From IMG/VR virus record IMGVR_UViG_3300008114_000011: DNA of 64,000 nucleotides. One strand, 5' to 3'. The stretch is from a virus. Taxonomy: Duplodnaviria; Heunggongvirae; Uroviricota; Caudoviricetes. The first letter of the stretch is position 1, and each line of letters starts with the position of its first letter. Made by a program: the position numbers and the translations under genes. The notes under the pieces are model-generated. The model worked only from the letters and a program-made list of their open reading frames with translations, was not told where the DNA came from and ran no database searches. Below, piece after piece: positions 4,698-61,158 of this stretch.

Positions 4698-4922
4698 ATG
4701 AAAGCTATTTGTATAAACGAATACGTCGGTGATACTTATATGGAACTAACTTTAGGTAAGATCTATAATGTCGTTAAAAAAGCTAAAGAAATAAAATTCC
4801 CGGATGATAAAATGAGATTCTTTATTATTAACGATGCTGGATATGGATCATACTATACGAGAAGAGTTATAATTCCATTAGATGAATGGAGAGAGAAACA
4901 ATTAAATGAATTAGGAATATGA
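4698..4922 (+). CDS. ELGI-tail family small protein (MKVICI subfamily)
   Basis: MKAICINEYV...DEWREKQLNELGI. Confidence 0.7.
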   Translation: MKAICINEYVGDTYMELTLGKIYNVVKKAKEIKFPDDKMRFFIINDAGYGSYYTRRVIIPLDEWREKQLNELGI

Positions 4923-5140
4923 AAGCAATCTGCATAAGAAAATCCCACCCTGGATACTGCAAATGGGACCTCACCCCAGGAAAGGCCTACGACGTGCTGG
5001 AACAGGGGAAAGACAACAACACCGAAGAGCCGATCTACCTAATACAGGACGACGAGGGAAACACATACTGGTACAGCAAGATCACGGTGATGCCGATAGA
5101 TGAATGGAGAGAGAAAAGGCTAAAAGAGATAGGAATATGA
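4919..5140 (+). CDS. ELGI-tail family small protein, GC-rich allele
   Basis: MKAICIRKSH...DEWREKRLKEIGI; hand count of first 120 nt gives about 51% G+C vs about 30% in neighbours. Confidence 0.7.
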   Translation: MKAICIRKSHPGYCKWDLTPGKAYDVLEQGKDNNTEEPIYLIQDDEGNTYWYSKITVMPIDEWREKRLKEIGI

Positions 5141-5189: not shown

Positions 5190-5432
5190 ATGAAAGTTAT
5201 TTGTATAAACAACCATATGGATCAGATTCCACTTACTATGGGAAAAGTCTATGATATCAAACAAAGATTTTATAGATATGATTTTTCAAATATGAAATCT
5301 TTGTTTGATATAGAAGGAAAAGAACATTTTTCTATAAAGAACAACAAAGGTAAGGAATCTTGGTATACTAGAGAAGAAGTAGTTCCACTAGAAGAGTGGA
5401 GAGAAATTAAACTTAATGATTTATTAAAGTAG
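5190..5432 (+). CDS. ELGI-tail family small protein (MKVICI subfamily)
   Basis: MKVICINNHMD...EEWREIKLNDLLK. Confidence 0.7.
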   Translation: MKVICINNHMDQIPLTMGKVYDIKQRFYRYDFSNMKSLFDIEGKEHFSIKNNKGKESWYTREEVVPLEEWREIKLNDLLK

Positions 5433-8344: not shown

Positions 8345-8569
8345 ATGAAAGAAGGTGATATTGTTTTTTGTATTGATTCATCTGATCATGGTAAGAAACA
8401 GAAATTAACTTATGGTAAAGGATATACAATTAAAAGAATTGATAATTATAAATTAAATTCAAGTATATCCATTAAAAATGATAGTGGTGTAATTGGTATT
8501 TATAATTTTAATAGATTTATAACTCTCAAAGAATGGAGAGATAAGAAACTAAAAGAACTTGGGTTATGA
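8345..8569 (+). CDS. ELGI-tail family small protein
   Basis: 74 aa; C-term KEWRDKKLKELGL. Confidence 0.65.
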   Translation: MKEGDIVFCIDSSDHGKKQKLTYGKGYTIKRIDNYKLNSSISIKNDSGVIGIYNFNRFITLKEWRDKKLKELGL

Positions 8570-26014: not shown

Positions 26015-26084
26015 AGGTGGGTAGCTCAACTGGAAAGAGCCTCTCATTAAGAGAGAGATTAAGGTTCGAATCCTGTCCCTTCTG
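26015..26084 (+). tRNA. tRNA-like element (type I size, loop ATTAAGA, possible UAA anticodon) with weak T stem
   Basis: D arm GCTC-AACTGGAAA-GAGC. Anticodon arm CTCTC-ATTAAGA-GAGAG. GGTTCGAATCC T-loop with only 3 T-stem pairs. Acceptor AGGTGGG/CCCTTCT has 1 mismatch. The helix extends 7 more bp (26008..26014 with 26084..26090). Confidence 0.45.
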
Positions 26085-29969: not shown

Positions 29970-30770
29970 ATGAAAAAGACAAATTATTACGAAATTTGTA
30001 ATCAAAAATTGAAGTATTTAAACTATTCAGATAGGACTATCAAGTCCTATCTTTATTATATTAATCAATTTTTAGAAAATACTAAAATACCACCAACCAG
30101 ATTAACAGCAACAGATTTCCAACAATATCTCAATAATTACAATTTTACCTCCACCTCACAACAAAATCAAGTCATAAACTCAATAAGATTCCTATACAAA
30201 GAATCACTTAATAAAAAATATGATAAGGTTGATTTTAAAAGACCTAGATCTGAAAAGAAACTACCAAAAGTAATTGATGGCGATTATATCAAATCTAAAC
30301 TTTCTAAAATAGAAAACCTTAAGCATAAAACTATACTTACTTTAACCTATTCAGTTGGTTTAAGAGTTTCCGAAATAATAAATCTTAAAATAGAAGATAT
30401 TGACTCCAAAAGAATGATTATTCATATTAAAAATGCTAAAGGTAAAAAAGATAGAATTGTACCACTTTCAGAAAACGTACAAAATCTAATAAAAATATAT
30501 TCAGAAAAATATACACCAAAAGAATATCTTTTTAATGGTCAATCCACAAACAAATATTCAATACAATCCTGTCAAAATATCTATAAAAAATATATTGATG
30601 AAAATTCATCTATACATACCCTCAGACACTCAGCCTTTACCAACCTCTTAGAAAATGGAACAGATCTAAGAATAATACAGAAAATAGCAGGTCACTCATC
30701 CACCAAAACAACAGAGATATATACACACGTTTCTAATCAACTTTTAAATAAAGTTAATCTACCAATTTAA
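29970..30770 (+). CDS. tyrosine recombinase, IntI/XerC/XerD-like (short, 266 aa)
   Basis: N-terminal SAM-like pattern LKYLNYSDRTIKSYLYYINQF; GLRVSEIINLK; AKGKKDRIVPLS; HTLRHSAFTNLLENGTDLRIIQKIAGHSSTKTTEIYTHV (R..HxxR..Y catalytic pattern). Confidence 0.85.
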   Translation: MKKTNYYEICNQKLKYLNYSDRTIKSYLYYINQFLENTKIPPTRLTATDFQQYLNNYNFTSTSQQNQVINSIRFLYKESLNKKYDKVDFKRPRSEKKLPKVIDGDYIKSKLSKIENLKHKTILTLTYSVGLRVSEIINLKIEDIDSKRMIIHIKNAKGKKDRIVPLSENVQNLIKIYSEKYTPKEYLFNGQSTNKYSIQSCQNIYKKYIDENSSIHTLRHSAFTNLLENGTDLRIIQKIAGHSSTKTTEIYTHVSNQLLNKVNLPI

Positions 30771-30799
30771 CTTTTCTTTGAAAAGAATTATTAAATGAT

Positions 30800-30807
30800 T
30801 ATATTTG
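30800..30807 (+). promoter_or_regulatory. -7 box TATATTTG
   Basis: TAnnTTTG 21 nt upstream of ATG 30828. Confidence 0.4.
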
Positions 30808-30827
30808 TATATAATCACACACATAAT

Positions 30828-31256
30828 ATGATAAAGTTTGTTAAGAAGTCGAGTTCGGGGTCTACAAAAGAGGTGGATTTAATATTATCTGATGTTAGTA
30901 ATTGTAAATCATTAGCATCTTCTATCTTATTAAGAAAATATTTAATGGAGATGGATGTGGATTATATAGAGAAGATGGATTTGATTAATAAACGTATTGA
31001 GTTTAGTAGAAGTTATTTAGAGAGTGTTTTATCTCGTGATGGTGATATTAAGTGTACTTATTGTGGTAAGGGAGATTTGGTTATTGAGTATGATGGGATG
31101 CGTGTCAAAGAAAGTATAAAGGCTACGATTGATCATATCGTTCCTGTATCAAGAGGAGGAGGTAGGTTTGATGTTAGTAATATAACTCCATGTTGTGGTG
31201 AGTGTAATGGTAAGAAGGGTAATAAGTCATTAGATGATTTTCTAAAGTCGATTTAA
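30828..31256 (+). CDS. HNH endonuclease
   Basis: CTYCGKG...ATIDHIVPVSRGGGRFDVSNITPCCGECNGKKGNK. Confidence 0.8.
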   Translation: MIKFVKKSSSGSTKEVDLILSDVSNCKSLASSILLRKYLMEMDVDYIEKMDLINKRIEFSRSYLESVLSRDGDIKCTYCGKGDLVIEYDGMRVKESIKATIDHIVPVSRGGGRFDVSNITPCCGECNGKKGNKSLDDFLKSI

Positions 31257-31257
31257 T

Positions 31258-31650
31258 ATGAATAAGATCACATTTTGTTTATCGGATAAGGCTGAATCAT
31301 TTTCATTTGATTTTGATTACTTTACTTTATTGGATGATGGTTCCATAACTTATAGTGGTGTAAATAGACATACTGGTTTTAGCACTAACGAGTTTTATGA
31401 TATTGAGAATATTTTTAAACAAAATGAGAGGTTTGATTTAATTGTATTGAGATGTTTTAGAATTAGAATAAATACTGTAAATAGGGTTATACATGGAGAG
31501 ATTACAAGTTTTGAGAGTTCTGGTCTTAGTAAGGTAAATTTAACTATTAAACCTAAGTTTATTTGGGATCTCGATCTTGGTGATGAGTTTTACAAACATT
31601 TACCAGCAATCAGAAGAGAAATAAAATTAAATAATATTATAGGAATATGA
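31258..31650 (+). CDS. protein with ELGI-type tail variant
   Basis: 130 aa; C-term AIRREIKLNNIIGI. Confidence 0.55.
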   Translation: MNKITFCLSDKAESFSFDFDYFTLLDDGSITYSGVNRHTGFSTNEFYDIENIFKQNERFDLIVLRCFRIRINTVNRVIHGEITSFESSGLSKVNLTIKPKFIWDLDLGDEFYKHLPAIRREIKLNNIIGI

Positions 31651-31946
31651 CATTAGAAGAATTAAGAGATCGTCCTTTAGAAGAAAAGGTAGATTATATA
31701 TGTGACTACGTTATCTCTCATGGATTGGGACCAAAGTTTAGAAATATTTCTTTCCGTGGAGTAATTGTTGAATATAAGGATATATTTGATGCTATTAGAG
31801 AAGTTAATAGGAGTTTAAGACCAGCTGAATATCATACCGATTGGTATCGATTAGGTGCTAATGTATTTAAAAATGAATTAGTTAAGGGAGTTTTAAATCA
31901 TGAATTGATATTCCCACGTATAAAAGAAGAAATATCAAAGTTATGA
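31647..31946 (+). CDS. hypothetical protein, tandem paralog A
   Basis: MTLEELRDRPLEEKVDYI...VKGVLNHELIFPRIKEEISKL. Confidence 0.6.
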   Translation: MTLEELRDRPLEEKVDYICDYVISHGLGPKFRNISFRGVIVEYKDIFDAIREVNRSLRPAEYHTDWYRLGANVFKNELVKGVLNHELIFPRIKEEISKL

Positions 31947-32242
31947 CATTAGAAGAGTTAAGAGAAAAGTCTTTAGAAGAAAAGGTGAATTATATTTTTG
32001 ATTATGTTACGTCTTATGCTCGTGAAAGAGAAGATAGGTTTAAAGATATACCTTTACGTGTATTAATTGATGAGTATGATGATATAATTGATGTTTTCAG
32101 AGAAGTTAATTATGGTCTAAGAAGATTTTGGAGTCAACCCGGATATCGAGCAAGTATTGAATATAAGAGAGAAGTAGTTAAGGGAGTTTTAAATCATGAA
32201 TTGTTATTCCCACGTATAAAAGAAGAAATATCAAAGTTATGA
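31943..32242 (+). CDS. hypothetical protein, tandem paralog B
   Basis: MTLEELREKSLEEKVNYI...VKGVLNHELLFPRIKEEISKL; same length (99 aa). Confidence 0.6.
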   Translation: MTLEELREKSLEEKVNYIFDYVTSYAREREDRFKDIPLRVLIDEYDDIIDVFREVNYGLRRFWSQPGYRASIEYKREVVKGVLNHELLFPRIKEEISKL

Positions 32243-32565
32243 GAGTGGTAACTGAAAGCCCAGAGAACTGGGTTATATTAAAAATTGACGGTGTTGATGG
32301 TGTTTACTATCGAGTTTTCGGTGGTTGGCGTGGTGGTTATGCCGGCAGTGATCGTTGGAAGATGAACTCTGGTATTGTTAAGGTGGAATCTGATAGTGAT
32401 TACTATTACTTTATAGGAGCTAGTGGTAGTTGTTATAAATGTCACAAGGAGAGTTATGCTGGTTTCAGTGGTTGGGTTTATGGAGTTTTGTCTAAGATAA
32501 TGGATGGAAGTCCGGTTCCTATTGAGGTTTTAGATGAAATGAATTTTGAGGAGTTAGGTATTTAA
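32239..32565 (+). CDS. hypothetical protein with short ELGI end
   Basis: 108 aa; C-term DEMNFEELGI. Confidence 0.55.
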   Translation: MRVVTESPENWVILKIDGVDGVYYRVFGGWRGGYAGSDRWKMNSGIVKVESDSDYYYFIGASGSCYKCHKESYAGFSGWVYGVLSKIMDGSPVPIEVLDEMNFEELGI

Positions 32566-32604
32566 TTTATTATACGGAATTTGTAAATTAAAAAAGATAT
32601 TAGG

Positions 32605-32865
32605 ATGAAAGATGGGATGGTTCAGTGTGTATCAAATGGTTGTGGTTATTACAAGAGTTTGAAGGTTGGTAAGTGGTATAAATTTAGAGAGGTATCTGAT
32701 TTAGTGGTCCCACCTCGGCTCGAAGGTCAATATTTAATTTACTTTGATGATTATGTTTCTGGACCAAAGGGTTCTCAAATGCTCAGATGTTCTTATCCAA
32801 AGAAATTATTTAGAACGGTTTCTGATAGAAGAGATTTTAAACTTAAAAAGATCGGTGTAATATAA
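32605..32865 (+). CDS. ELGI-tail family small protein (variant)
   Basis: 86 aa; C-term SDRRDFKLKKIGVI. Confidence 0.55.
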   Translation: MKDGMVQCVSNGCGYYKSLKVGKWYKFREVSDLVVPPRLEGQYLIYFDDYVSGPKGSQMLRCSYPKKLFRTVSDRRDFKLKKIGVI

Positions 32866-32870
32866 AAAAT

Positions 32871-33170
32871 ATGAATGGAATTTTAATATCATTAGTAGTC
32901 GTATTAGGAATTATTGCGATTGCTGTATTATTTTTAATTTGGAAGATTGTTTCTTTCAAAAGTAAAATTGAGGATACTGTTGTCGATAGTATCAAAGAGG
33001 TTATTGTAACAAGAGGACCTGAGGCTGTTAAGTATGTTAATGGTAAGATTAGTAAACCAAAACCACCAAGAAGTCAGATAATAAAAGAAGGGCGTGATCC
33101 AGTTCCTGCACCACCAAAAGATAGGATTTTAAAAGAAGGTGAACAACCACCTAAACCAGATAATTTATAA
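32871..33170 (+). CDS. membrane-anchored Pro/Lys-rich protein
   Basis: N-term ILISLVVVLGIIAIAVLFLIW; repeat PPRSQIIKEGRDP / PPKDRILKEGEQP. Confidence 0.55.
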   Translation: MNGILISLVVVLGIIAIAVLFLIWKIVSFKSKIEDTVVDSIKEVIVTRGPEAVKYVNGKISKPKPPRSQIIKEGRDPVPAPPKDRILKEGEQPPKPDNL

Positions 33171-33172
33171 AT

Positions 33173-33889
33173 ATGAGAAATAATTTAGTAGAGATATTTC
33201 ACGATACTCAAATCAAGTCCGTGAAGTTTAATGATGGTGTTACAACACAACATTCAAATAATGAGATAGTTGGACCTTATTTATCAGTTTATAAAGGTAA
33301 TGTTAAGGTCGTTAATTTAGATACGGTATCTGCTCTTGTAGAGTTATCTAAGTCTGGTAAAACTTGTGGCTTGAATATGGCTTCGTATAAGAAACCGGGT
33401 GGTGGAGTTCGTAATGGAGCCAGAGCTCAAGAAGAATGTTTATTTAGATGTTCTAACTTAATCAATTCAATTGTAGAAGATTTTTATCCATTAGAAGATG
33501 GTACTTGTCTTTATACATCAGATGCTACATTCTTTAAAGATAAGGATTATAATGATATGGAACCGGTTGAGTGTGATATTATTACGATAGCTGCTATAAA
33601 CTTAAACAGTCGTAGTTATGATAAAGAGACTTATGAAGAGATTACACTCCAAAAGATAAGATTGATGCTTACTATCCCATCTAAACATGGTGTTGAGAAC
33701 TTGGTTTTGGGAGCTTTTGGTTGTGGTGTTTTTGGGAATGATCCCCATGTGATGTCAGAATTATTTAGAAAGGTTTTAGTTGAAGAAGGTTATTCATCTT
33801 TATATAAAGAGGTTGTTTTTGCTGTTATAAACGATCATAATTCTGTTGGTAATAATTATAGTGTGTTTTCTGATAAATTCTACTCTTAA
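33173..33889 (+). CDS. macrodomain protein, microbial PARG-like (TIGR02452/DUF2263-type)
   Basis: LNMASYKKPGGGVRNGARAQEECLFRCSNL and LVLGAFGCGVFGNDP signature blocks. Confidence 0.7.
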   Translation: MRNNLVEIFHDTQIKSVKFNDGVTTQHSNNEIVGPYLSVYKGNVKVVNLDTVSALVELSKSGKTCGLNMASYKKPGGGVRNGARAQEECLFRCSNLINSIVEDFYPLEDGTCLYTSDATFFKDKDYNDMEPVECDIITIAAINLNSRSYDKETYEEITLQKIRLMLTIPSKHGVENLVLGAFGCGVFGNDPHVMSELFRKVLVEEGYSSLYKEVVFAVINDHNSVGNNYSVFSDKFYS

Positions 33890-44152: not shown

Positions 44153-44410
44153 ATGAAAGTTAAATGTATTTCCAATCAAAAGAGATGGGGTGGGTCAGTT
44201 AGTACCTACCCTTTAGTAGTTGGTAAAGTATATAATGTTATATCAACTGGTCACGTACCATTTGTTTCGAGAAGATATGATGATTATAGTGGACCTTTCT
44301 ATAAAGTCACTAATGAAGATGGTGTAGAGGGTAATTATAGTGATGATATTATGAGACCATTAAATAAGTCTGAAATGAGAGACGAATTGTTAAAAGAGTT
44401 GGGTATATGA
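44153..44410 (+). CDS. ELGI-tail family small protein (MKVICI subfamily)
   Basis: MKVKCISNQ...SEMRDELLKELGI. Confidence 0.65.
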   Translation: MKVKCISNQKRWGGSVSTYPLVVGKVYNVISTGHVPFVSRRYDDYSGPFYKVTNEDGVEGNYSDDIMRPLNKSEMRDELLKELGI

Positions 44411-44625
44411 TTGGAATTATTTGGGTTTGTGTTGACAATACTGCTAATGAACATAGACTAACTGTTGGTAAAAAATATACCGAGATTTTAAATAAATTTG
44501 CTGATCTTGATTGTATTTTAATAAAAGATGATAATGGTATGATATCAGAGGTTTATCAACCTGGTTTCTTTATTAAAATTGATGAATGGAGAGATAGTCA
44601 GTTAAGAAAAATTGGAATAAAATGA
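44407..44625 (+). CDS. ELGI-tail family small protein
   Basis: 72 aa; C-term DEWRDSQLRKIGIK. Confidence 0.65.
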   Translation: MIGIIWVCVDNTANEHRLTVGKKYTEILNKFADLDCILIKDDNGMISEVYQPGFFIKIDEWRDSQLRKIGIK

Positions 44626-46404: not shown

Positions 46405-47193
46405 ATGGGAAAACATTATTTATATAAACATATAAGAAATGATAGTAATATCATTTTCTATATTGGTATAGGGACAAAAAATAAATCTGATATAACTTAT
46501 AATAAGTATAGTAGGGCTTTTAATAAAAAAAGGAGAAATAAACATTGGTTAAATACAGTTTCTTTATTGAATGATGATTATTCAATTGAGATAGTATGTG
46601 AGACCGATGATTATGAATATGTGAAAAGTCTAGAAAAAAATCTGATTTTATTTTATGGTAGAAAGGATCTAGGTTTAGGTAATTTAGTAAATATGACAGA
46701 TGGTGGTGATGGTCAAATAAAAAGAGTTTGGAGTGAAGAGTCTAGGAAGAAGGCATCTAAATCACACATTGGTAAAGTAATTGATGGTGAGTGGAAGAAA
46801 AATTTAATAAAAGCTAGATTTGGAAATAAATCACATTCTGGTCGAACTTTTTCAGATGAACATAGAAAAAAAATATCAGAAGCAGGTAAGGGAAAAATAC
46901 CTTGGAATAAGAATAGAGAATTATCCAATGATGAGATTGAAAAAATAAAAAAGGGTATAGAAGAAAATAAAAAAATTTGTTATATTTGTAATGTTGAGTG
47001 TGACTCTGCTAATTATAATAGATGGCATGGTGATAAATGTGAGATGGGATCTATTTTAGATAGGGTTGATGAGATAAAGGATTTATTGTATAATAAAGTT
47101 CCTTTACTTAGGATTAGTAGAGTTTTAGGAATAAAGTATAAATTATTGAGAAGATTAAAAGAGTCAGTTTTATTTAAAGAAGAATTATTATGA
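46405..47193 (+). CDS. GIY-YIG homing endonuclease with NUMOD3-like repeats
   Basis: HYLYKHIRNDSNIIFYIGIGT (GIY...YIG); repeats SEESRKKASKSHIGK and SDEHRKKISEAGKGK. Confidence 0.75.
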   Translation: MGKHYLYKHIRNDSNIIFYIGIGTKNKSDITYNKYSRAFNKKRRNKHWLNTVSLLNDDYSIEIVCETDDYEYVKSLEKNLILFYGRKDLGLGNLVNMTDGGDGQIKRVWSEESRKKASKSHIGKVIDGEWKKNLIKARFGNKSHSGRTFSDEHRKKISEAGKGKIPWNKNRELSNDEIEKIKKGIEENKKICYICNVECDSANYNRWHGDKCEMGSILDRVDEIKDLLYNKVPLLRISRVLGIKYKLLRRLKESVLFKEELL

Positions 47194-47963
47194 AATATTT
47201 AAAAAAGAAATATCCGGATGGTAGCTTTTATGTTGAAGTAGAGGATTTTAGTGAACCTATAATAACCGAAAGAATAAATTCATATGAGGACCTTTTTTTC
47301 ATAAAATCCATCAAAGAGGTTTGTGATTTTAATGGAATTAAAGATGTTGAGTTATTTATACCATGTATGTTTCAACAGCAACATGACCGTAGATTTTTTG
47401 ATAATCAATCATTTGAACTAAAGATAGTTTGTGACTTTATCAACTCATGTAATTTTAGTAAAGTTTATGTTTTCCATCCACATTCTGATTCCACTCAAAT
47501 GGGATTGAATAATATTAGAGTTGTTGATAATTCTAAATTTATATCAAGTGTTTTAAGTAGAATTGATTCTAATCCAATATTATTTTCAACAGATGCTGGT
47601 TCATTTAAATGGATAAATAAATTAGTTGATAAAATAGGATTTAATGGTGATGTTTATTGTGCTAGTAAGTCTAGAGATTTAAAAACACATGATTTGAAGC
47701 AAGTTATTGATTGTTCTGATTTTGGTGGTAGAGATATATTAGTATTGGATGATTTATGTGTAAAGGGTGGTACATTTATAGGTCTATTGAATATGTTAAA
47801 GGAGAGAAATGTTGGTAAGATATACTTAGCAGTTAGTCATATGACTATTCAAGATCCAAATACAAGTCTTGAGTGTTATGATAAGATATTTACTACTAAT
47901 AGTAAGTATGACTATTATGTTCTAAATAATTTAGAATTGATTGATTATAAAAGTATTATATAA
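47190..47963 (+). CDS. prs: ribose-phosphate pyrophosphokinase (PRPP synthetase)-like protein
   Basis: LFIPCMFQQQHDRRF resembles the Prs xPYxxYxRQDR block; PRPP-binding loop DILVLDDLCVKGGTF. Confidence 0.6.
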   Translation: MKYLKKKYPDGSFYVEVEDFSEPIITERINSYEDLFFIKSIKEVCDFNGIKDVELFIPCMFQQQHDRRFFDNQSFELKIVCDFINSCNFSKVYVFHPHSDSTQMGLNNIRVVDNSKFISSVLSRIDSNPILFSTDAGSFKWINKLVDKIGFNGDVYCASKSRDLKTHDLKQVIDCSDFGGRDILVLDDLCVKGGTFIGLLNMLKERNVGKIYLAVSHMTIQDPNTSLECYDKIFTTNSKYDYYVLNNLELIDYKSII

Positions 47964-47968
47964 AAGAT

Positions 47969-48826
47969 ATGAAAAACTTTAAAATAGGAGGTGTTCCCGA
48001 ACACTTCAACTTACCTTGGCGTTTAGCCATTGAAGAAGGAAGATTAAATGATTTAGATGTAAATCTACACTGGTCTGATATGACTGGTGGTACTGGTCAA
48101 ATGATTAAAGGTTTACAAGCAGGTTCAATTGACATCGCAGTTCTTCTTACTGAAGGAATTACAAAAGCAATTTTAGATGGTTTGGATGCCAAAATATTAA
48201 CAGTTTATGTTAAAAGTCCATTACGATGGGGTATTCACGTACCTTTTAATTCAGAAATGAAAACTTCTGATGATATCAAAGGTAAAACATTTGCTATCTC
48301 AAGAGAAGGTTCTGGTTCACACTTAATGGCTTATGTAAACTCATTTCAAAGAGGTTGGAATACCGATGATTTAAAGTTTGAAGTTGTTGGTGATGTTTAT
48401 GGTGGTTTATGGGCTTTAGAGAATGGGCAGTCTGATGTTTTCTTATGGGAAAAGTTTACAACTTATCCATTTGTTAAAGCAGAGAAATGTAAATGTATCG
48501 GTGAAGTTGTAACACCTTGGCCCTGTTTCGTAGTTGCTGTTAGAAACGAGATCTATGAACAACACAAAGATTTGTTAAGAGAAGTTATGAAAGTCGTTGG
48601 TGGTGTCGCAAATGAGATTAAAAACCCATCATTACATGATTTCTATTCAAATGAAATTTCTTGGAGATATAACTTAGAAAAAGATCAAGCTTCTACTTGG
48701 TTGAATGAAGTAGAATGGAACTACACTGGTGATAATGATGTTAATGATTATGAATTAGTAGTTGATTATCTACAAAAAATATCTCTTATTGAAGAAAATA
48801 AAGACTGGAAATCTAAATTATTTTAG
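47969..48826 (+). CDS. NMT1/THI5-like periplasmic-binding-fold protein (tentative)
   Basis: N-term KIGGVPEHFNLPW recalled as typical of the NMT1/THI5-like family; assignment from memory only. Confidence 0.4.
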   Translation: MKNFKIGGVPEHFNLPWRLAIEEGRLNDLDVNLHWSDMTGGTGQMIKGLQAGSIDIAVLLTEGITKAILDGLDAKILTVYVKSPLRWGIHVPFNSEMKTSDDIKGKTFAISREGSGSHLMAYVNSFQRGWNTDDLKFEVVGDVYGGLWALENGQSDVFLWEKFTTYPFVKAEKCKCIGEVVTPWPCFVVAVRNEIYEQHKDLLREVMKVVGGVANEIKNPSLHDFYSNEISWRYNLEKDQASTWLNEVEWNYTGDNDVNDYELVVDYLQKISLIEENKDWKSKLF

Positions 48827-48871
48827 AGGTAATAGGTTCTTATATATATAAGTATAAAAGAAGTGATACTT

Positions 48872-49846
48872 ATGTTAGAAGAATTTATAAAAAAATCGAT
48901 AGTTAAATTTGGTAATAAATTTGATTATAGTAAGTTTAATTATGTGAATGCTAAAACTAAATCTATAATCATATGCCCAGTACATAAAGATTTTTTTCAA
49001 ACACCTGATAAGCATTTACGTTCAAAATATGGATGTAAATTATGTTGGGAAATTGAAAAAAAGAAAATAAAAAGAGATTATGTAAAGGGTCCAAATATCA
49101 TTTCAAAAGATGAGTTCTTGGGTAGATGTTATGAGAAGTTTGGTGATAAATTCAAATACGATTTATCAAACTACAATGGGTTTGTTGGTGATTATATAAA
49201 AATAACTTGTTCAGAACATGGTGATTTTTATACAAAACCGAATATACATTTATTAAGTAATAACACCTATGGGTGTAAATTATGTGCTAATGATAATAGA
49301 GTACTCAATAAAACACAAACCTATGATGATGTTATAGAAAAATTATCAAATATTTATAATGATAAATATATTTATCCTGAATATAATAGAGATACTTATA
49401 TTAACAAGAGGTCGAAAATAGATATAATTTGTCCGGATCATGGGCTATTTGTTAAGAGTGTTCAAAAACACCAAAGCGGTCAATATTGTTTTGAGTGTAA
49501 AATTAAGAATATGGTTTTTAATAATATTTTAGTTGGTGGTTACACTGAGAAATTATTTGAAGATAAACCAGAATTAAAGGATAAAAAATCTAAATTATAT
49601 TATTTGAGAATAAATAATGGTGATTATTATAAAATAGGAATAACAACAGTTTCGGTTGAAAGTAGAATAAAGTCATTGAAGAGTAAATCTAAAGGTTTTA
49701 TAAAAGATGTTGAGATTTTATTTGAAAAGGAAATGTCTTTATATGAATCATATATCATGGAGAGTAAAATATTAAATGATAATATAGATAGTAGAGTTTA
49801 TAAAAAATGGAGTACTGAAATTTTCAACAAAAATGTTTTGGAATAA
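48872..49846 (+). CDS. homing-endonuclease-like protein (repeated Cys modules plus T5orf172/GIY-YIG-like C-terminal domain)
   Basis: Three repeats of FG.KF.Y....Y......I.C..HG.F......HL....GC..C; C-term LYYLRINNGDYYKIGITTVSVESRIKSLKS. Confidence 0.55.
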   Translation: MLEEFIKKSIVKFGNKFDYSKFNYVNAKTKSIIICPVHKDFFQTPDKHLRSKYGCKLCWEIEKKKIKRDYVKGPNIISKDEFLGRCYEKFGDKFKYDLSNYNGFVGDYIKITCSEHGDFYTKPNIHLLSNNTYGCKLCANDNRVLNKTQTYDDVIEKLSNIYNDKYIYPEYNRDTYINKRSKIDIICPDHGLFVKSVQKHQSGQYCFECKIKNMVFNNILVGGYTEKLFEDKPELKDKKSKLYYLRINNGDYYKIGITTVSVESRIKSLKSKSKGFIKDVEILFEKEMSLYESYIMESKILNDNIDSRVYKKWSTEIFNKNVLE

Positions 49847-49881: not shown

Positions 49882-51462
49882 ATGAACTTTTTAGAAATTT
49901 ATTATACCGATGTGTATAAAACAGGACACAAACCAATGCTACCAGTGGGTAGTGTTTTGATGCAATCAAATTTTACACCAAGGAGTGGTAAATATAGCAA
50001 TTGTCCAAATAATGGTAAAATTGTTTCGTTTGGTCAACAAATGATGGTGAGAAAAATGAAACAAGATTGGGATGTTAACTTTTTTCAAAGACCAATTGAA
50101 GAAATCGATCAATTTGGGAAGGATTTAACAGATATGTTAATGCTGAGTGATCCTTTTGATGTTACTCACTTCAAAGAACTACATAAATTGGGATATCTTC
50201 CGATTGAGTTTAGAGCAATCACTGAAGGTGAGAGAATTCCGTATAAAATACCATTATCGACTATCGTTAATACTAAACCTTTAAATGGTCAAGTTTTTGA
50301 CTGGATAGTTAATTACTTAGAAACTATTAATTCTGCTGAATCTTGGCAAGCACCAACTTCAGCGACGCTATCATTCGCATTAAGAGAGTTATCAACAAAG
50401 TGGATCACAAAAACAGATCCGGAGAGTTTGTGGTTTGTTGACTATCAAAATCATGATTTCTCAATGAGAGGTATGGGTGGTAAATCAGCTATTGTTAATA
50501 GTGGTTTAGGATTTGCTACTTGTTCGAGAGGTTCAGATACACTACCTGTTATACCAGCTGCTAGAATGTATTATGATGAAAAAGATGTTTGTATCAACTC
50601 TGTTATCGCATCTGAACATGCTATTATGTGTTCATTGACTGGATTTTTCATTAAGACTAAAGATGGTTCTTGGGATAAGGTTGGTAACTTTGAAGTTGAG
50701 ACATTTAGGTATTTATTAAGAACTTTTCCAACTGGAATATTGTCATTAGTATCTGATACTTGGGATTTATGGAGAGTTATTACGGAGTACTGTCAAATAT
50801 TAAAAGATGAAATTTTAGCAAGAGATGGCAAACTTGTTATCCGTCCTGACTCTGGTGATCCAGTAGATATTATTTGTGGTAGCATAACTCCAGATATGTC
50901 TTCTTATAATGAAAGATACAAACAACCTCAATATAAAGGTGTTATCGAGTTATTATGGGATATCTTTGGTGGTACTGAAACATCAACCGGATATAAAAAA
51001 TTAGACTCACACATTGGTGCTATCTATGGTGACTCTATTAACTATAAGAGAGCTGAGAGTATTTATGAAAGATTATCAGCTAAAGGATTTGCAACAACAA
51101 ACATCGTTCTCGGTGTGGGATCCTATTCACTTCAGATGGTAACACGCGATACACATGGTATGGCTCAAAAAGCAACCTACATCGAAATTGAAGTTGATGG
51201 TGATGTTGAAGGTATCAACATCTTTAAAGACCCTATCACTGATGATGGTACTAAAAAATCAGCAACTGGATTACTAAAAGTAGTTAAAGTTGATGGTGAG
51301 TTTACATTAATTGATAAATGTACTTGGGATGATGTTAACTCGGAAGATAATGAGCTGAAAGTTATCTTCAAAGATGGTAAGTTCTATAACGAAACGACTT
51401 TGACCATCATACGTGGGAAGTTAGAGGATCTTGTTTCTAAAGAACAACCTGAATTAGTTTAA
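49882..51462 (+). CDS. nadV: nicotinamide phosphoribosyltransferase (NAMPT/NadV)
   Basis: 526 aa; N-term YYTDVYKTGHKPM; length and blocks SDTWDLW, IRPDSGDP, GAIYGDSI fit NAMPT. Confidence 0.8.
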   Translation: MNFLEIYYTDVYKTGHKPMLPVGSVLMQSNFTPRSGKYSNCPNNGKIVSFGQQMMVRKMKQDWDVNFFQRPIEEIDQFGKDLTDMLMLSDPFDVTHFKELHKLGYLPIEFRAITEGERIPYKIPLSTIVNTKPLNGQVFDWIVNYLETINSAESWQAPTSATLSFALRELSTKWITKTDPESLWFVDYQNHDFSMRGMGGKSAIVNSGLGFATCSRGSDTLPVIPAARMYYDEKDVCINSVIASEHAIMCSLTGFFIKTKDGSWDKVGNFEVETFRYLLRTFPTGILSLVSDTWDLWRVITEYCQILKDEILARDGKLVIRPDSGDPVDIICGSITPDMSSYNERYKQPQYKGVIELLWDIFGGTETSTGYKKLDSHIGAIYGDSINYKRAESIYERLSAKGFATTNIVLGVGSYSLQMVTRDTHGMAQKATYIEIEVDGDVEGINIFKDPITDDGTKKSATGLLKVVKVDGEFTLIDKCTWDDVNSEDNELKVIFKDGKFYNETTLTIIRGKLEDLVSKEQPELV

Positions 51463-51947: not shown

Positions 51948-53663
51948 TTATGTACAATCTGGACAATCAATTCTACCATCACCATCACATCGATTACACC
52001 AAATTCTACCTTCACCATCACAATCACCACACTCTCTGGTACCATCACCACCACATCTATCACATTCGTTAGTACAGTCACCCTCACATTCAGAACAATC
52101 TTGTTTACCTGATCCACTACAATAAGAACACTCATTTCCCTCATCATCTTCTCCAGTTCCATCACAACTAGAACAGTCTTCTTTTCCAGTTCCTTCGCAG
52201 TTATCACAAGGTAGAGTACCGTGTCCATCACAATTAGAACATTCTACTTCACCAGAGGCACCACATTCTTCACAATCATATCTTCCATCACCCTCACATT
52301 CATAGCAATCAATTCTTTCATCACCACCACATCTTTCACATTCTTCTCCATTACCACCATCAGTTTCTCTTAGTTCGTAATAGTTACTATTTATTACTAA
52401 TTTTTGCTCATTTGTTAAGAATCCATAATCCCATTCATAATAACAAAGAGTATCTAAATAAGGGTATTTACTAAAGCCGTTCATTTCTAAATCAACTTTA
52501 ATTGTTCCGATGTTTGAATCAGAACCATTAAACATAAACTCTTCCTCTGAAATATTTTGATTTTTCTTATAAACATATCCCATTTTAATTGCGTATTTAA
52601 TAAACAATTCTTGGTCTGGTGAATTACTCACATAAATTCTATCCATAAATGGTTTTCCTTCTGATTCGGTATGTTTTACTAAATTATATTTCGTTATTAC
52701 TCCTTCATCATCACCACCATCCCATGGCATATATTCTGGTTTTTTCCAAAGAAGAGCTCTACCTATAATTTTAGTTGGATCTTCTTTAGATTTTAATATA
52801 ACTAATCCAACACTTTTAGGATTTTTAGAATATATGTTTAAGTAGTCTTGACATCTAGCATGTCTCATACAAGATGCTCCTAAAGTATGATTACCACCTC
52901 GATAATAATTACCTTCATAATAAAACTTTTTAATATCATCACCTTCAACCAATTCAAAATCAGAGAATATATTTTCTTTTTTAGCTTTAGTGGCAATTGA
53001 AAACTTAGTTACAAAATCTTCAACTTCAGTTCCTTTAACTTCTTTACCAGCTTTCTTCAATAGTGATTGAACGAATGATCCAACTCTAACTTCTTGTGAG
53101 GAAACCGCTCCCTCACCAATTTTAAGACCATAATCTTCAATGATAAGATCAATATTCTCACCACTTCTATTAAATCTTATATGATAAATTTTACGTCCTT
53201 GATCAAGATACCATTTTAATCTATTTTTTACATCCTCATCATTAAAATCATCAATACTTGTTATCTGTTTAGTAATAGTAGCTTTTTGGTTTCTTTGAAG
53301 TAATTCATACCAATTCAAAAAACCTTTTTCGACTCTTGGATCTTCAAATAATTTAGCAAATGATGTAAATATTTCTTTTGATAAGATAGACAATGATGCG
53401 CCAAAATCAATTATAACACAAGAGTTTTTAGACTTTTTATCGGATTTAAATTGTATAAAGTTGTCTTTATCATCAGAAATATCAATAAAGTTTGTATCAA
53501 CATCAACGTCAACACCCTCTAAATCTAAAATCTCTTTTGAAAGTGGACTATTAACCGACTTCAAAATTTCTTTGAAATCATCTTTATAAACCATATTACC
53601 TTCAAGTAGTAAATTGAGTTTACTCTCGTTTAGGAAACTATCATATCTTAAAATATTACTCAT
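51948..53663 (-). CDS. large protein with about 12 tandem CxxCxGxG (DnaJ-type zinc-finger-like) repeats at the C-terminus
   Basis: C-term CERCGGD..CYECEGDG..CEECGASG..CSNCDGHG..CDNCEGTG..CSSCDGTG..CSYCSGSG..CDRCGGDG..CGDCDGEG..CNRCDGDG..CPDC. N-terminal domain paralogous to 61155..62276. Confidence 0.75.
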   Translation of the reverse strand: MSNILRYDSFLNESKLNLLLEGNMVYKDDFKEILKSVNSPLSKEILDLEGVDVDVDTNFIDISDDKDNFIQFKSDKKSKNSCVIIDFGASLSILSKEIFTSFAKLFEDPRVEKGFLNWYELLQRNQKATITKQITSIDDFNDEDVKNRLKWYLDQGRKIYHIRFNRSGENIDLIIEDYGLKIGEGAVSSQEVRVGSFVQSLLKKAGKEVKGTEVEDFVTKFSIATKAKKENIFSDFELVEGDDIKKFYYEGNYYRGGNHTLGASCMRHARCQDYLNIYSKNPKSVGLVILKSKEDPTKIIGRALLWKKPEYMPWDGGDDEGVITKYNLVKHTESEGKPFMDRIYVSNSPDQELFIKYAIKMGYVYKKNQNISEEEFMFNGSDSNIGTIKVDLEMNGFSKYPYLDTLCYYEWDYGFLTNEQKLVINSNYYELRETDGGNGEECERCGGDERIDCYECEGDGRYDCEECGASGEVECSNCDGHGTLPCDNCEGTGKEDCSSCDGTGEDDEGNECSYCSGSGKQDCSECEGDCTNECDRCGGDGTRECGDCDGEGRIWCNRCDGDGRIDCPDCT

Positions 53664-53753: not shown

Positions 53754-54587
53754 ATGGAAAAGGGATATATTTATAAAATAATTTCACCAACTAACAGGAT
53801 TTATATTGGTAAAACTTTTAATTTGGAAAAGAGAGTAAGATCTTATAAAGGTTTATGGTGTAAAAAACAAAGAGTTTTGTATAAATCATTAGTTAAATAT
53901 GGTTGGGATAAACATAGTTTTGAGATACTATTTGAAGATTTTTGTAGTGAGGAATATTTATCTGAGTTGGAGACAAAGTATATAATTGAATATAATAGTT
54001 TTCGAAGATACAACTATAAATTTGGAATGAATTTAACTCTTGGTGGTGAAGGATCTTGTGGATTAAAACATACGGATAAAACTAAAAAAATGATATCCGA
54101 AACTAAGAAAAAGGCTAAAAGAACGGAGAAAGAGATTTTAGCAAGTGAAAAAAGAAGAGGGACTAAGGTTTATAAAAGTGAAGAGTGGATTAAAAATAAC
54201 GCAGAGAGTATAAAAAAACCAATATTGCAATATGATTTGGATGGTAATTTTATCAAAGAATGGAAAAGTGCTAAAGATATTGAATTGGAATTGGGATTTT
54301 CTAGGAAAAACATTTCCTGTAATGTTAGATATAAAAGTAATAGTGCATTTAACTTTATATGGATTTTTAAAAATGCCGATCTTAAAATAGATGATATTCT
54401 AATAAGGAGAAAAAGAGAAAGAAAAAAACCAACTAATAGTATTAAGGTTTTAGATATTGAATGTAATATTGTCTATGATAGTATAATGGATGTAGTTAAA
54501 AATACTAACATGACATATGCTAAAGTTTATCGAGTTATATACAGTAATGATGAGAATAAAAAGTATATTATATATGAAGAGAAATAA
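53754..54587 (+). CDS. GIY-YIG homing endonuclease
   Basis: GYIYKIISPTNRIYIGKTFNLEKRVRSY; NUMOD-like HTDKTKKMISETKKKA. Confidence 0.8.
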   Translation: MEKGYIYKIISPTNRIYIGKTFNLEKRVRSYKGLWCKKQRVLYKSLVKYGWDKHSFEILFEDFCSEEYLSELETKYIIEYNSFRRYNYKFGMNLTLGGEGSCGLKHTDKTKKMISETKKKAKRTEKEILASEKRRGTKVYKSEEWIKNNAESIKKPILQYDLDGNFIKEWKSAKDIELELGFSRKNISCNVRYKSNSAFNFIWIFKNADLKIDDILIRRKRERKKPTNSIKVLDIECNIVYDSIMDVVKNTNMTYAKVYRVIYSNDENKKYIIYEEK

Positions 54588-56024: not shown

Positions 56025-57749
56025 ATGAAAAGAATATTATTTTTACTAACACTATTATTATCATTTAGTTCATTAGCAACTAATTATTATATTAGTTCAA
56101 CCGGAAACAATACAAACAATGGAACATCATCTATTACACCAAAATTAACATTAGCAAACGTTTTCAGCACCTATAATTTAGGTTCTAATGATACTATTTT
56201 CGTTGAAGCAGGAACTTATTCTGAGACAGGTATTACTGTTGGTACTGATGATGAAGGTTTTGTAATTTCTGGTGCGGCTTTATCATCTGGTGTACCTACA
56301 TCTATTTTTGATGCAGGTAGTACCGCAAGATGGTTATTGTTAAATAACACAAATAATGATAATATCACAATCACTAAATTAATTATAAAGGATCATAAAA
56401 ATTCTGATGGAGGTGATCCAGGAGGTGGTGGAGCAATTAAAATAATTGCTGGATGTACAGGATTTAAAGCAACTTATTGTCAGTTTGATAATTGTGATAC
56501 AAGAACTGCCTCTTTACATCACCGAGGTGGTGTTATTTATTCTGCTGAGGGAATAACCATCGATTATTGTACTTTCAAAAATTGTAATGCTGAATATTAT
56601 GGTGGTGCTATTTCAATAGAATTATCACCAACATCATCATCATCAATAAAACATTCAATTTTTTATTCAAATACCGCTACTAATTACGGAGGTGCTATAT
56701 TCTTTGGTGTTGGATCTACCTCTACTCTAACATTAGAAAACTGTTTATTTTATGAAAATAATACATCATCAGGAGAGGCTGTTATTGTTGCTATGAATAC
56801 ATATAGTACATTAAATATTATGAACTGTACTATAACTGCTAATGGTAATGCTTCTGTTGGAACTGGAGGTGTTTTGGCTTTATCATCAGCTAAAATAAAT
56901 TTAATAAATACAATTATTTATAATAATTTAGGTAATACTTTCAATGATGTTTATAATAATGCCGCTACCGTTAACATGACAAATTGTTGTTATGGAAATT
57001 CAGCTGAGATAAAATCAGCTACATCAAATACATCACCGTTAATATCAAATCCACTATTCACAAATAGTGCTAGTGATGATTATACACTTTCTGGTACATC
57101 ACCTTGTATAGATTGGGGAACAACAACCGGAGCACCAACTGATGATTTGAGACATTATAGTCGTATTGGTAATCCAGATGTTGGATGTTATGAATCAAAT
57201 GGTATTGCTTTACCAATTGAGTTGATTTACTTTAAAGTTAAATTTGAAGATGGTGTTGTTAAATTAAGATGGTCAACAGCATCAGAACACAATAATGATT
57301 ATTTCACAATTGAAAAGTCAAAAGATGGTTTAGATTATGATATAGTTACAACTCTACCAGGTGCTGGTAATTCAACTCAAAGAATAAACTATCAAGCAAT
57401 TGATCGAAATATTGAAACTGGAATAACTTACTATCGATTAAAACAAACTGATTATAATGGTGATTATAAAAGAACAGATTGGGAGTCTATATTAATTCAA
57501 TTAAATATTGAGAACTTAACGGTTTATCCAAATCCAATTACAAATGAAATAAATGTTTCTTTACATTCATCTTTTAGTAAGGTTGAAGACTTATTGATAT
57601 ATGATTTAACCGGTAAACAATTTTATAAAAAATCATTAGATTTACAATTAGGTGATAATTATTTTGATGTAGAGTTACCACAACTTTCTAAAGGTCTTTA
57701 CATACTACAAATAGGTGATAAGAAACTTAAACTTGAATATAATGATTAA
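56025..57749 (+). CDS. secreted beta-helix-like protein with T9SS C-terminal sorting domain
   Basis: Signal peptide MKRILFLLTLLLSFSSLA. Repetitive G/N/T-rich segments (GGAI.I, YGGAIS, YGGAIFF). C-term LTVYPNPITNEINVSL...DLTGKQFYKKSL...LSKGLYILQIGDKKLKLEY is typical of the Por/T9SS CTD. Confidence 0.75.
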   Translation: MKRILFLLTLLLSFSSLATNYYISSTGNNTNNGTSSITPKLTLANVFSTYNLGSNDTIFVEAGTYSETGITVGTDDEGFVISGAALSSGVPTSIFDAGSTARWLLLNNTNNDNITITKLIIKDHKNSDGGDPGGGGAIKIIAGCTGFKATYCQFDNCDTRTASLHHRGGVIYSAEGITIDYCTFKNCNAEYYGGAISIELSPTSSSSIKHSIFYSNTATNYGGAIFFGVGSTSTLTLENCLFYENNTSSGEAVIVAMNTYSTLNIMNCTITANGNASVGTGGVLALSSAKINLINTIIYNNLGNTFNDVYNNAATVNMTNCCYGNSAEIKSATSNTSPLISNPLFTNSASDDYTLSGTSPCIDWGTTTGAPTDDLRHYSRIGNPDVGCYESNGIALPIELIYFKVKFEDGVVKLRWSTASEHNNDYFTIEKSKDGLDYDIVTTLPGAGNSTQRINYQAIDRNIETGITYYRLKQTDYNGDYKRTDWESILIQLNIENLTVYPNPITNEINVSLHSSFSKVEDLLIYDLTGKQFYKKSLDLQLGDNYFDVELPQLSKGLYILQIGDKKLKLEYND

Positions 57750-58499: not shown

Positions 58500-59033
58500 A
58501 TGAGAAAACCCTTTAAGAGAGTAGAACCAAAAAGAAAACACAAAATTAATTTAGAAATAACATCAAGTGATGTTAGATTGATTGGTAATGGAGAACCAAT
58601 CGTTATTTCTAGAAATGAAGCTATTAGAATGGCTGAAGCAGAGGAAAAAGATTTGATTATGATTAATGAAAATCAAACTCCACCTATTGTTAGAATTGAG
58701 GACTACAACAAATTTCTTTATAATCAAGAAAAGATTGAGAAAGAGAAAAAGAAAAATGCTGTTAAATCCTCTTTAAAAGAAATACAATTATCGGTTAATA
58801 TATCAGATCATGATTTAGAAACTAAATCTAAAAAAGGTAGAGAGTTTTTAAGTGACGGTGATAAAGTAAAAGTTGTTATCTCTTTAAAAGGTAGAGAGAA
58901 AGCATCTCCAGAAAGAGGTGAGTTAGTTATGTTAAAATTTGCTCAATCCGTTGAAGAGTTTGGTACACCAGAGGCACTTCCTAAATTAGAATCCGGAAAG
59001 TGGTTAATGATTTTGAAATGTAAAAAGAAATAA
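58500..59033 (+). CDS. infC: translation initiation factor IF-3
   Basis: INLEITSSDVRLIGNGEPIVISRNEAIRMAEAEEKDLIMINENQTPPIVRIEDYNKFLY...KEIQLSVNISDHDLETKSKKGREFLSDGDKVKVVISLKGRE follows the two-domain IF-3 pattern. Confidence 0.85.
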   Translation: MRKPFKRVEPKRKHKINLEITSSDVRLIGNGEPIVISRNEAIRMAEAEEKDLIMINENQTPPIVRIEDYNKFLYNQEKIEKEKKKNAVKSSLKEIQLSVNISDHDLETKSKKGREFLSDGDKVKVVISLKGREKASPERGELVMLKFAQSVEEFGTPEALPKLESGKWLMILKCKKK

Positions 59034-59136: not shown

Positions 59137-61158
59137 TTAAACCCATTTATCATTTTTTCTTTTAAGAAGTTTATCTCCTTCTAATTTATAAAACTTATAT
59201 TTTTTATCAATAGAAGTTATAACATAATATTTATCTGGTCCTAATTCCTTATATCTTTTCATATTACCAGTTACCTTAACACCATCCACTTCACCACCCA
59301 TTTGTTTGGCATAAGCCCATTTAATATAGTGTGGATCAACGTGTCTCGATCTTAATTTATCTTGTTCAATTGATGTTTCTAATGTAGATAATAAGTGAAT
59401 AAAAACTATTTCATATCCATTCTCTCTTGCTAAATCAAATATATCCTTAATGTGTTCATAACCAGTATCAGTATATTCTTTACCAGCACCGGTTGTATCA
59501 TAGATAAAGTTTTGACCAGTTTTCATAAAACCTTTCATCTTCATTAAGTTTAATTCAGACGCATTTTTTGTTCTACCACCTTCTTCTTTTTCTTTTCCTT
59601 TATAATAAACATTTGGATCTTTTGTGTAAAGAAGTGAAATATCATCAGTTGAGAAGTCTTTAATGTTTGTATTTTTTGTATGTAAATAATTATTCACAAA
59701 GTGTGAATTATGTAGTATTGTTGGTAAGTTACCACCTATGAAGTTATGATGTTTATCTAAGACTATATCATAAACATAATCATTATGTTCTATTGTTGAT
59801 ATATTAGTTATTTTATCAAAAAATAAGTTATTGTGATGATTAATATATGTTTCTGGTATATAAACATTATTCTCATTTAAAAAATTACATATTTTATTAA
59901 AACGTTTTTTCGTTATTACTCTTCTATATTTATAACTTCTAGTAAATCTATATCCAGTTTCATCTTCTGGTATAAATTCGGTAATAAAAAATAAAAAAAC
60001 AAATTTAAATAATAAGGATTTTTTATCATATATAGTCAGGGTAACAAGTGATGATTTTAATTTATTTGGAGAAATATTAAATAAATATATTAGATGTAGT
60101 AGAAAAAAAATTAAACCAATTGAAAAAACTAATACAAATATTGGTGGATTTATACCAAATGATGACATGGTGGAATTAATTTATAATAATAAATTAAACA
60201 TTAAAAGTGCATAAGATAAATCAGTAGCCATTTCATATGACGATGTGTAATATTCAACTCTATTTTCAAATACAGAACCATCACAAGATAAATAACTACC
60301 TAAGAAATGTTTTAATGATTCACTGTTTGATATTATATCATCCGGAATTCTAACTTTATGTGATTTGTTGCCAAAAATATAATCACCACATATTTCAGAA
60401 ATATTTGAAATAAAATCATATTTATCTTTTTTAAATCTTCGATTTCCTAATTTAATATCATCTGAATATTGAACACTATGTCTTATTTTTTTAGATTTTA
60501 CTGTTAATATTTTATTTTCTTTTTCGACACATTTTCTAAAATCATCTATTATATCAATATCTATATTTGTTAGTGTTAGAAATTTACTATTTTTATTTTT
60601 TATAAAATTACCATCACTTAACGAATAACCAATAATCCTTGATAATTCATTACTTATTTTTGATTTATTATTAAAAGTGTTATTTATTATTCTAGGTCTG
60701 GCTAACTTATCATCTATTGTTATTTCTGATGATTTTTTCCAAATAATATCACCGTTTTTTTCTAAAACTAATAATGGGTGTATAGGTGTAACTTTTATAT
60801 CAACACCCGTTTGTGTTTTTATATTTATTAACTTTTCTGAATAGCCTCTATATAAACTCGAAATCTCATTTTCCACAAACTCACCACTATCATTTAATGA
60901 TTTAACATATAAGTTTTTAACAGGAATATTTATTTCACCAATTTTTGATTCGGTGTTATAGTTATCTATCAATTTACCAATTTTAGTCATTTTATTATTC
61001 ACTAAAATGGGTGTATTATATTCTAAGCACTTTCCAATACCGGGAGCACCGATTAGGAAAACAGCTAATCCTTTTTCTTTATCTAATATTTCTGGAATTG
61101 GTTCATTCTTTGACCATTCTTCTTTTATGTAATTGAAAAATTCTTTTATATATCTCAT
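59137..61158 (-). pseudogene. intein-containing P-loop kinase, reading frame broken by one in-frame TAA (60181..60183)
   Basis: ORFs 60181..61158 and 59137..60168 are in the same frame. N-extein ends GAPGIGK. C-extein starts SHFVNNYL...IYDTTGAGKE (zeta/AAA_33-like kinase pattern). Confidence 0.6.
59707..61029 (-). mobile_element. class 1 intein with LAGLIDADG homing-endonuclease domain
   Basis: Block A CLEYNTPILV directly after the P-loop Lys. Block B VTPIHPLLV. LAGLIDADG motifs IIGYSLSDGNF and FLGSYLSCDGSV. Blocks F/G YVYDIVLDKHHNFIGGNLPTILHN|S. Confidence 0.8.

Follow-up and report, generated by a model that had tools for sequence, protein, structure and literature searches.

A bacterial-type PARG macrodomain protein in a probable huge phage and its possible role in counter-defence

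What would a phage gain from a poly(ADP-ribose) glycohydrolase (PARG)? The question is raised by a gene in the IMG/VR virus record IMGVR_UViG_3300008114_000011 (Caudoviricetes), of which we analyzed one stretch of 64 kb, here called the window, from a genome of at least 172 kb. The gene, an ATG-started open reading frame (ORF) at 33173..33889 on the + strand (stop codon included), encodes a 238-aa protein that an earlier note, made from the letters alone, had placed among the PARG-like TIGR02452/DUF2263 macrodomains. This placement holds. The protein matches the TIGR02452 profile at 130.5 bits (cut-off, 50; E=8.1e-38) and the PF10021 profile (PARG_cat_microb) at 75 bits (cut-off, 23.5; E=1.1e-20). 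Both scores exceed the curated cut-offs, so that a significant macrodomain profile match, whose absence would have spoken against the idea, is present. The two sequence blocks that had suggested the family, LNMASYKKPGGGVRNGARAQEECLFRCSNL and LVLGAFGCGVFGNDP, are located exactly at aa 67-96 and aa 177-191, respectively. The strand opposite the gene is closed by many stops, and since M1, L5, D11 and T12 at the N-terminus do not vary across 30 homologues, the ATG start is right.

Solved structures place the protein with the bacterial PARGs. Its sequence matches the PARG of Thermomonospora curvata (TcPARG; PDB 3sig) at E=3.9e-17 and that of Deinococcus radiodurans (DrPARG; 5zd*) at E 1e-16, and a profile built from the 30 phage-clade homologues matches DrPARG (5zd*) at E=7e-27. 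The structure prediction that the earlier note had proposed as a check, made with AlphaFold2 on the 30-homologue alignment, gave a confident model (pLDDT, 85.5; pTM, 0.86) whose best neighbours are solved bacterial PARGs. Foldseek ranks TcPARG first (E 3e-16; TMq, 0.85) and matches DrPARG with a TM of about 0.75, whereas canonical PARGs appear at E of about 1e-6 with TMt of 0.4 or less; the macrodomain fold is thus that of the PARG class, and is nearer to the solved bacterial PARGs than to other macrodomains. Canonical (eukaryotic-type) PARG was rejected as an identity, the PF05028 profile (PARG_cat_C) scoring 14 bits against a cut-off of 26.3 (E 0.038) and no accessory domain being present. 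Membership among the DarG/TARG1-type antitoxin macrodomains was also tested, and the protein falls outside that group. In every sequence and fold property by which the bacterial-type PARG family is recognized, the protein belongs to it.

The active site appears complete. The family signature is GGG-X6-8-QEE, with the second glutamate catalytic (PMC8120803, PMC6445106), and alignment to 3sig and 5zd* finds it in the phage protein as GGG-X7-QEE (G76-G78 ... Q86-E87-E88; 33398..33436, +), where E88 falls on the catalytic Glu115 of TcPARG, the residue replaced in the E115A mutant structure 3sij, and on Glu112 of DrPARG. A Gly-rich diphosphate-binding loop, GAFGCGVFGN (aa 180-189; 33710..33739, +), aligns with GAWGCGVFGN/RN of TcPARG and DrPARG. 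Conservation was read from two sets, a clade alignment of 30 homologues at 55-67% identity and a wider set of 108 single-domain representatives of the family. The signature is invariant throughout the clade (30/30) and in about 108/108 of the wider representatives; G180, G183, C184, G185, V186, F187 and N189 of the loop are likewise invariant in 30/30 clade members, and signature and loop positions together are essentially invariant in the wider set. Because these positions hardly vary, if at all, in either set, catalysis appears to be under selection. The catalytic Glu and the Gly-rich loop, whose loss in an alignment would have counted against the original identification, are therefore both retained. 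Sequence and model together make it very probable that the protein is a catalytically competent bacterial-type PARG, in identity and in chemistry; it should be an intact PARG-class O-glycohydrolase that releases free ADP-ribose.

One part of the active site departs from the founding enzyme. In TcPARG, Arg268 of the ribose cap is held by Asp261 and blocks the adenosine 2'-OH, which makes the enzyme exo-only, while DrPARG has Thr267 at the cap position (Asp position, 260) and endo-activity was seen (PMC6445106). The corresponding C-terminal loop of the phage protein is N220-D221-H222-N223-S224-V225-G226-N227-N228 (33830..33856, +), in a sequence register anchored on the conserved FAV-x-[DN]-x-H segment and on DrPARG residue numbers and primer sequences. 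The salt-bridge position Asp261/260 is then N220, which is invariant, and the cap position Arg268/Thr267 is N227 (ungapped register) or N228 (MAFFT alignment). Position 227 holds N, S or K in 25, 4 and 1 of the 30 clade sequences; position 228 is Asn in all 30 and in 104/108 of the wider relatives. Arg and Lys are absent from aa 216-232 of the PARG-like protein. The obligate exo-glycohydrolase subtype of TcPARG was accordingly rejected, its Arg268-Asp261 cap being replaced by Asn at both positions. The phage clade thus seems to have no Arg-Asp cap and to resemble the open site of the DrPARG type, although it differs from DrPARG too, with Asn both at the cap and in place of the Asp. With Asn/Asn in place of the cap, the site is probably left open on the side of the adenosine 2'-OH, as it is in DrPARG, and internal (endo) units may therefore be accepted as well. 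We regard the near-invariant Asn at the cap position as a modest peculiarity that the clade appears to have.

The assignment is correct but routine, and has already been made automatically in public databases: the JGI name for this exact protein is 'uncharacterized protein (TIGR02452 family)'. Since the family is also known in viruses, the finding amounts to a correct identification within a known family, one that numbers 8,518 clusters at 50% identity at E<=1e-3, 98 of them at E<=1e-30. The identical protein occurs on at least 18 metagenomic contigs of up to 171,766 bp. On six contigs the gene is 100% identical in DNA, and on one of these (L001) the identity continues across the flanks compared. 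The contigs that carry relatives at 45-67% identity measure 87-642 kb, and those in IMG/VR 109-597 kb. Among GenBank phages a homologue is present in only 20 records (tblastn, 34-52% identity), namely the metagenomic huge phages LR756502 (642-kb), which is the closest relative, and LR756511 (595-kb), fifteen Lak megaphages, Bacillus phage G (gp114, two records) and one 23-kb faecal phage contig. Megablast of the 5 kb around the PARG-like gene against 50,697 phage records gave no match. In a viral structure library the top match was 'Gp114 [uncultured marine phage]' (A0A8D9C9L8; 50% identity; TM, 0.89), and the next were giant-virus proteins that already bear the label 'microbial-type PARG', which UniProt gives to viral homologues, or 'TIGR02452/DUF2263'. 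The phage G, A0A8D9C9L8, Lak and giant-virus proteins are of the same family and likewise stand alone in very large viral genomes, whereas the protein described here falls in a clade of freshwater or environmental huge phages. Fusions of HD and PARG domains (P0244, P0250) are the sole informative kind among relatives; one relative is fused to a GT41 glycosyltransferase, which is likely a gene-call fusion.

What such an enzyme would do for a phage is a less certain matter. By homology, motif conservation and fold, an ADP-ribose unit is bound in the macrodomain cleft, loop 180-189 holding the diphosphate and the GGG-X7-QEE loop the distal ribose. In the mechanism that we prefer, the enzyme would strip ADP-ribose that host or competitor ADP-ribosyltransferases (ARTs) have attached via a ribose 1''-O linkage, the candidate targets being the 2'-OH of RNA (RhsP2-type toxins), the 5'-phosphate ends of RNA and DNA (Tpt1/KptA-type enzymes) and poly(ADP-ribose) (PAR) chains. 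With that ADP-ribose gone, the nucleic acids of phage and host would stay usable, as would translation, and the ADP-ribose released could be recycled to NAD+ by a putative NARP1 gene pair in the window (47190, 49882). The protein would in this way serve as a free-standing accessory factor of counter-defence in a huge phage, co-transcribed with small early-type genes. As a whole, with a competent PARG, counter-defence and recycling taken together, we find this explanation somewhat more probable than its negation; the role in counter-defence against macromolecular ADP-ribosylation, taken as a claim of its own, has in our judgement slightly less than an even chance. The two roles that the earlier note had proposed, reversing ADP-ribosylation imposed by the host or processing ADP-ribose-derived signals, are both plausible.

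Work on other members of the family and on other phage enzymes suggests why such a role might be expected. Bacterial PARGs hydrolyse PAR chains and not Glu- or Ser-linked mono-ADP-ribose (PMC6445106). Bacterial PARG homologues also accept the ADP-ribose installed by RhsP2 on the 2'-OH of RNA, in which the ribose-ribose linkage is the same as in PAR, as well as ADP-ribose linked to a 5'-phosphate on RNA and DNA, and bacterial-type PARGs were found in 2025 to protect cells in vivo from the RNA-ADP-ribosylating toxin RhsP2. The concept of a phage hydrolase that reverses host ADP-ribosylation has precedents in NADAR (against DarTG1, in T4-like phages) and in a DarG-like macrodomain (DarG2-like, in chimalliviruses), both ADP-ribose hydrolases that are proven counter-defences (PMC11825919, PMC13309987). 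According to Iyer et al., 56% of jumbo phages have Macro domains, mostly in genes that stand alone, and 33% have NadV (PMC9503650). In their conflict, bacteria and phages rely centrally on ADP-ribosylation and on molecules derived from NAD+. The members of the present clade are intact and conserved, are found almost only in huge phages and vary in their genomic position, and on these grounds the clade may reasonably be proposed as a third class of phage enzymes that erase ADP-ribose. Through it one could learn which O-linked ADP-ribosylation, or which signal, Bacteroidota-type hosts turn against huge phages.

Several points weigh against the preferred mechanism. Phage PARG members are known from genes alone, no cognate host toxin is known, and the Bacteroidota host is itself only inferred. 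The known anti-phage ARTs use linkages on which no PARG has been reported to act (bases in the case of DarT, adenine N6 in the case of CmdT), and RhsP2-type toxins are interbacterial weapons that have not been demonstrated to act as phage defences. The protein has no PHROGs or PADLOC match, so that phage and defence libraries give no functional hint. Nor does any conserved neighbour indicate a target: when the ORFs of the window region and of 14 divergent loci were compared all against all by BLASTP, PARG itself was the one gene in common. With the NARP1-like genes 14-16 kb away, any coupling of the PARG to NARP1 is no more than a speculation about metabolism. Model confidence is lowest in the cap loop (pLDDT <50 at 221-223), so what is said above of the cap is based on sequence and not on the model. 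In the literature searched we found no paper on the role of PARG-type enzymes in phages.

The best-surviving alternative, though an unlikely one, is housekeeping repair of nucleic-acid ends, in which the enzyme would remove ADP-ribose from 5'-phosphates so that the RNA/DNA ligase and end-healing enzymes of the phage could reseal tRNA or DNA that infection has broken. It takes its appeal from DrPARG (DRB0099; PDB 5ZDA-5ZDG), which is encoded in a DNA-damage-induced ligase-PARG-PNKP operon, acts on 5'-phosphate-linked ADP-ribose and has been proposed to serve repair there, and the HD-PARG fusions among relatives are in keeping with it. The phage gene has no such neighbours. Two huge-phage loci do have an RNA ligase gene some 5 kb upstream, but this proximity is confined to one closely related phage pair, and RNA-repair genes are not recurrent neighbours in the 14 divergent loci. 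When 150 neighbouring ORFs were pooled and scanned with Pfam, no ADP-ribosylation, sirtuin, TIR or RNA-ligase family recurred among the top 25 of 101 families; the commonest was DHFR, at 3/150 ORFs. The window does encode an RNA-repair phosphatase of the 'Swiss Army Knife' type (HAD_SAK_2, E 1.7e-27; 13063-13542, +), at a distance of 20 kb from the PARG-like gene.

A little less likely again is that the enzyme erases the marks of a phage-encoded writer, a PARP-like or other ART outside the window, and so trims or recycles the modification, by which host takeover or phage DNA repair would be regulated. PARP-like genes do occur in jumbo phages (PMC11662467, PMC9503650), and one huge phage, LR756511.1, holds a PARP-like catalytic domain together with a PARG-like gene (186479-186847 and 592396-593016, both on the - strand), possibly a viral writer/eraser pair. 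That is the single record common to the 16 PARP-positive and 20 PARG-positive phages, however, and LR756502 is not PARP-positive. In the window itself, Pfam found no ART, PARP, sirtuin or second macrodomain among the 135 ORFs, and a local tblastn with a single PARP1-core probe, an approximate query sequence, found no ART or PARP.

The NAD-related genes of the window bear on a further alternative. The earlier note had remarked on NAMPT and Nudix genes in the same phage, and both are present, but they are distant from the PARG-like gene (the Nampt-like gene by 16 kb, the Nudix gene by 28 kb), and the 'NAMPT' is more probably a Namat. This NadV/Nampt-type gene (NAPRTase; 49882-51462, +) matches NF006629 at 424 bits against a cut-off of 405. 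Two genes upstream of it, and about 14 kb from the PARG-like gene, sits a Prs-like gene (47190-47963, +), an Adps candidate that matches the Adps of Bacillus phage FADO, with 30.6% identity to the 'ribose-phosphate pyrophosphokinase' of that phage, whose NARP1 operon has been studied experimentally. The operational criterion for a Namat is an adps gene at most 10 genes away, and it is because the Prs-like gene lies so close that we prefer the Namat reading. The pair looks like a putative NARP1 pathway, in which ADP-ribose (ADPR) and nicotinamide would yield NAD+.

Between the two genes lie a PBP2/SsuA-like solute-binding protein (47969-48826) and a T5orf172/GIY-YIG-like ORF (48863-49846), and the pair is interrupted and flanked by homing-endonuclease-like ORFs. 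The four genes of this kind, all on the + strand, are NUMOD3 (46405-47193), T5orf172/MUG113 (48863-49846), GIY-YIG+NUMOD1 (53754-54587) and HNH (30795-31256); three of the four cluster around the NAD-salvage genes. The Nudix hydrolase (62295-62906, -; PF00293, E 2e-17) is, to judge from its nearest NCBIfam models, of ADPR type without an NMNAT domain; these models, all below cut-off, are the Nudix domain of bifunctional NMNAT/Nudix proteins (NadM-type) and the ADPR-responsive repressor NtrR.

With such genes at hand the enzyme might instead degrade soluble ADPR-derived immune signals, as a macrodomain analogue of the phage RyR-domain glycosidase RyDEP, a reading to which we give a low probability. 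Phage Macro domains, typically stand-alone, have been argued to counter mainly soluble ADP-ribose derivatives (Iyer et al. 2022, PMC9503650). The glycosidases RyDEP and XopQ cleave such signals, RyDEP cutting a ribose-ribose O-glycosidic bond to give linear ADPR that feeds NARP1 (PMC13232231), and the present phage also has a NARP1-like pair within the window. In 2'cADPR, an isomer of cyclic ADP-ribose, the linkage is 1''->2' between riboses, as in PAR. The PAR linkages cut by PARGs are alpha, whereas those of the cyclic isomers (2'/3'cADPR) are probably beta at C1'', so that RyDEP substrates probably differ from PAR in anomeric configuration. PARG moreover binds extended ADP-ribose, with a leaving ribose that comes from another unit. 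RyDEP is of unrelated fold and is encoded inside the NARP1 operon, and a placement of this kind, within the Adps-Namat operon, was looked for and rejected for the PARG-like gene, which ends at 33889 while the Prs-like gene starts at 47190. The homologue loci in other phages have no NAD-salvage neighbours, and the literature searched held no paper tying PARG-type enzymes to Thoeris signals. A stronger version, that the Asn-capped huge-phage PARGs are glycosidases of small ADPR immune messengers (2'cADPR-like or another ADP-ribose conjugate) and not PAR erasers, is a shade more doubtful still. If it were true, an alarm signal would be turned into linear ADP-ribose and, by the NARP1-like Adps/Namat of the phage, into NAD+, which would make the enzyme a convergent macrodomain counterpart of RyDEP. 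That the protein is a non-catalytic ADP-ribose binder, sensor or sponge is very improbable, since neither the two signature glutamates nor any part of the catalytic loop varies in the clade or the wider family, which would be unexpected of a pure binder, even though some macrodomains are readers only (PMC9503650) and phage sponges for nucleotide signals are known (PMC13232231).

The preferred reading, a free-standing PARG of counter-defence or repair that acts on O-linked ADP-ribose, can be set finally against the founding enzyme. TcPARG (PDB 3SIG/3SIH/3SIJ) shares with the phage protein the family profile, GGG-X(6-8)-QEE, a GAWGCGVFGN-type loop and a similar size, at an identity of about 26%; its cap residues Arg268 and Asp261 correspond to Asn227/228 and Asn220.

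Locally, the PARG-like gene is the ninth and last in a packed + strand string of genes (29970..33889) with gaps of -4 to +39 nt, which runs from a tyrosine-recombinase-like gene through an HNH endonuclease and six small ORFs without family matches to the PARG-like gene. The stop of the latter shares 4 nt with the stop of a convergent 143-aa ORF. No terminator was found at its 3' end, and a sigma-70 promoter scan gave results at chance level (36 found against 37 expected). At the head of the string, the tyrosine recombinase (Phage_integrase with a SAM-like N-domain; 29970-30770, +) has a gene call that is 25 aa shorter in contigs L002 and L006. Contig L003 has a different sequence upstream of window position ~28.9 kb, where it encodes a CrAss_Ring_2 domain protein (L003 324-986, -), indicating mosaicism or mis-assembly. 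Directly upstream in the string of the PARG-like gene are two tandem 99-aa paralogues (31647-31946 and 31943-32242, +), with 56% identity, overlapping stop and start codons and no family match.

That the protein is phage-encoded, as the earlier note had it, is borne out by the gene content of the window and by the best database matches of four unrelated window genes, which are to huge-phage or Flavobacteriia-phage genomes. On these two grounds a huge-phage origin of the window is a well-supported inference; gene content was needed for the argument because a 51-mer of the PARG-like gene had no exact match in IMG/VR. The 64 kb yielded no capsid or terminase family; they are 89% coding, with 113/135 ORFs on one strand, and carry a tRNA, IF3, inteins, several homing endonucleases and many small ORF families. 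The GC content is about 28%, and this together with a type IX secretion system (T9SS) sorting domain fits a Bacteroidota host. The domain in question (Por_Secre_tail) stands at the C-terminus of a 574-aa protein that also has DUF5123 (56025-57749, +) and is possibly exported by the host secretion system.

The sole tRNA of the window is a tRNA-Leu (anticodon TAA; 26015-26084, +). A full-length translation initiation factor IF-3, with IF3_N and IF3_C (58500-59033, +), is a trait of very large phages. Two intein ORFs, one with an N-terminal splicing region and LAGLIDADG (60181-61158, -) and one with a C-terminal splicing region (59137-60168, -), match intein-containing RFC, helicase and ATPase models, and the intein-bearing gene at 59137-61158 may be split or mis-called. 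Two paralogues with 33% identity over 309 aa (51948-53663 and 61155-62276, -) matched neither Pfam nor NCBIfam; metagenomic huge phages of 630-735 kb (LR756501-4, LR745206) carry 6-16 members of their family per genome, and Cellulophaga phages one. A dispersed family of ORFs of ~75 aa, with 28-43% pairwise identity, has members on the + strand at 1269-1499, 4698-4922, 4919-5140, 5190-5432, 8345-8569, 44153-44410 and 44407-44625.
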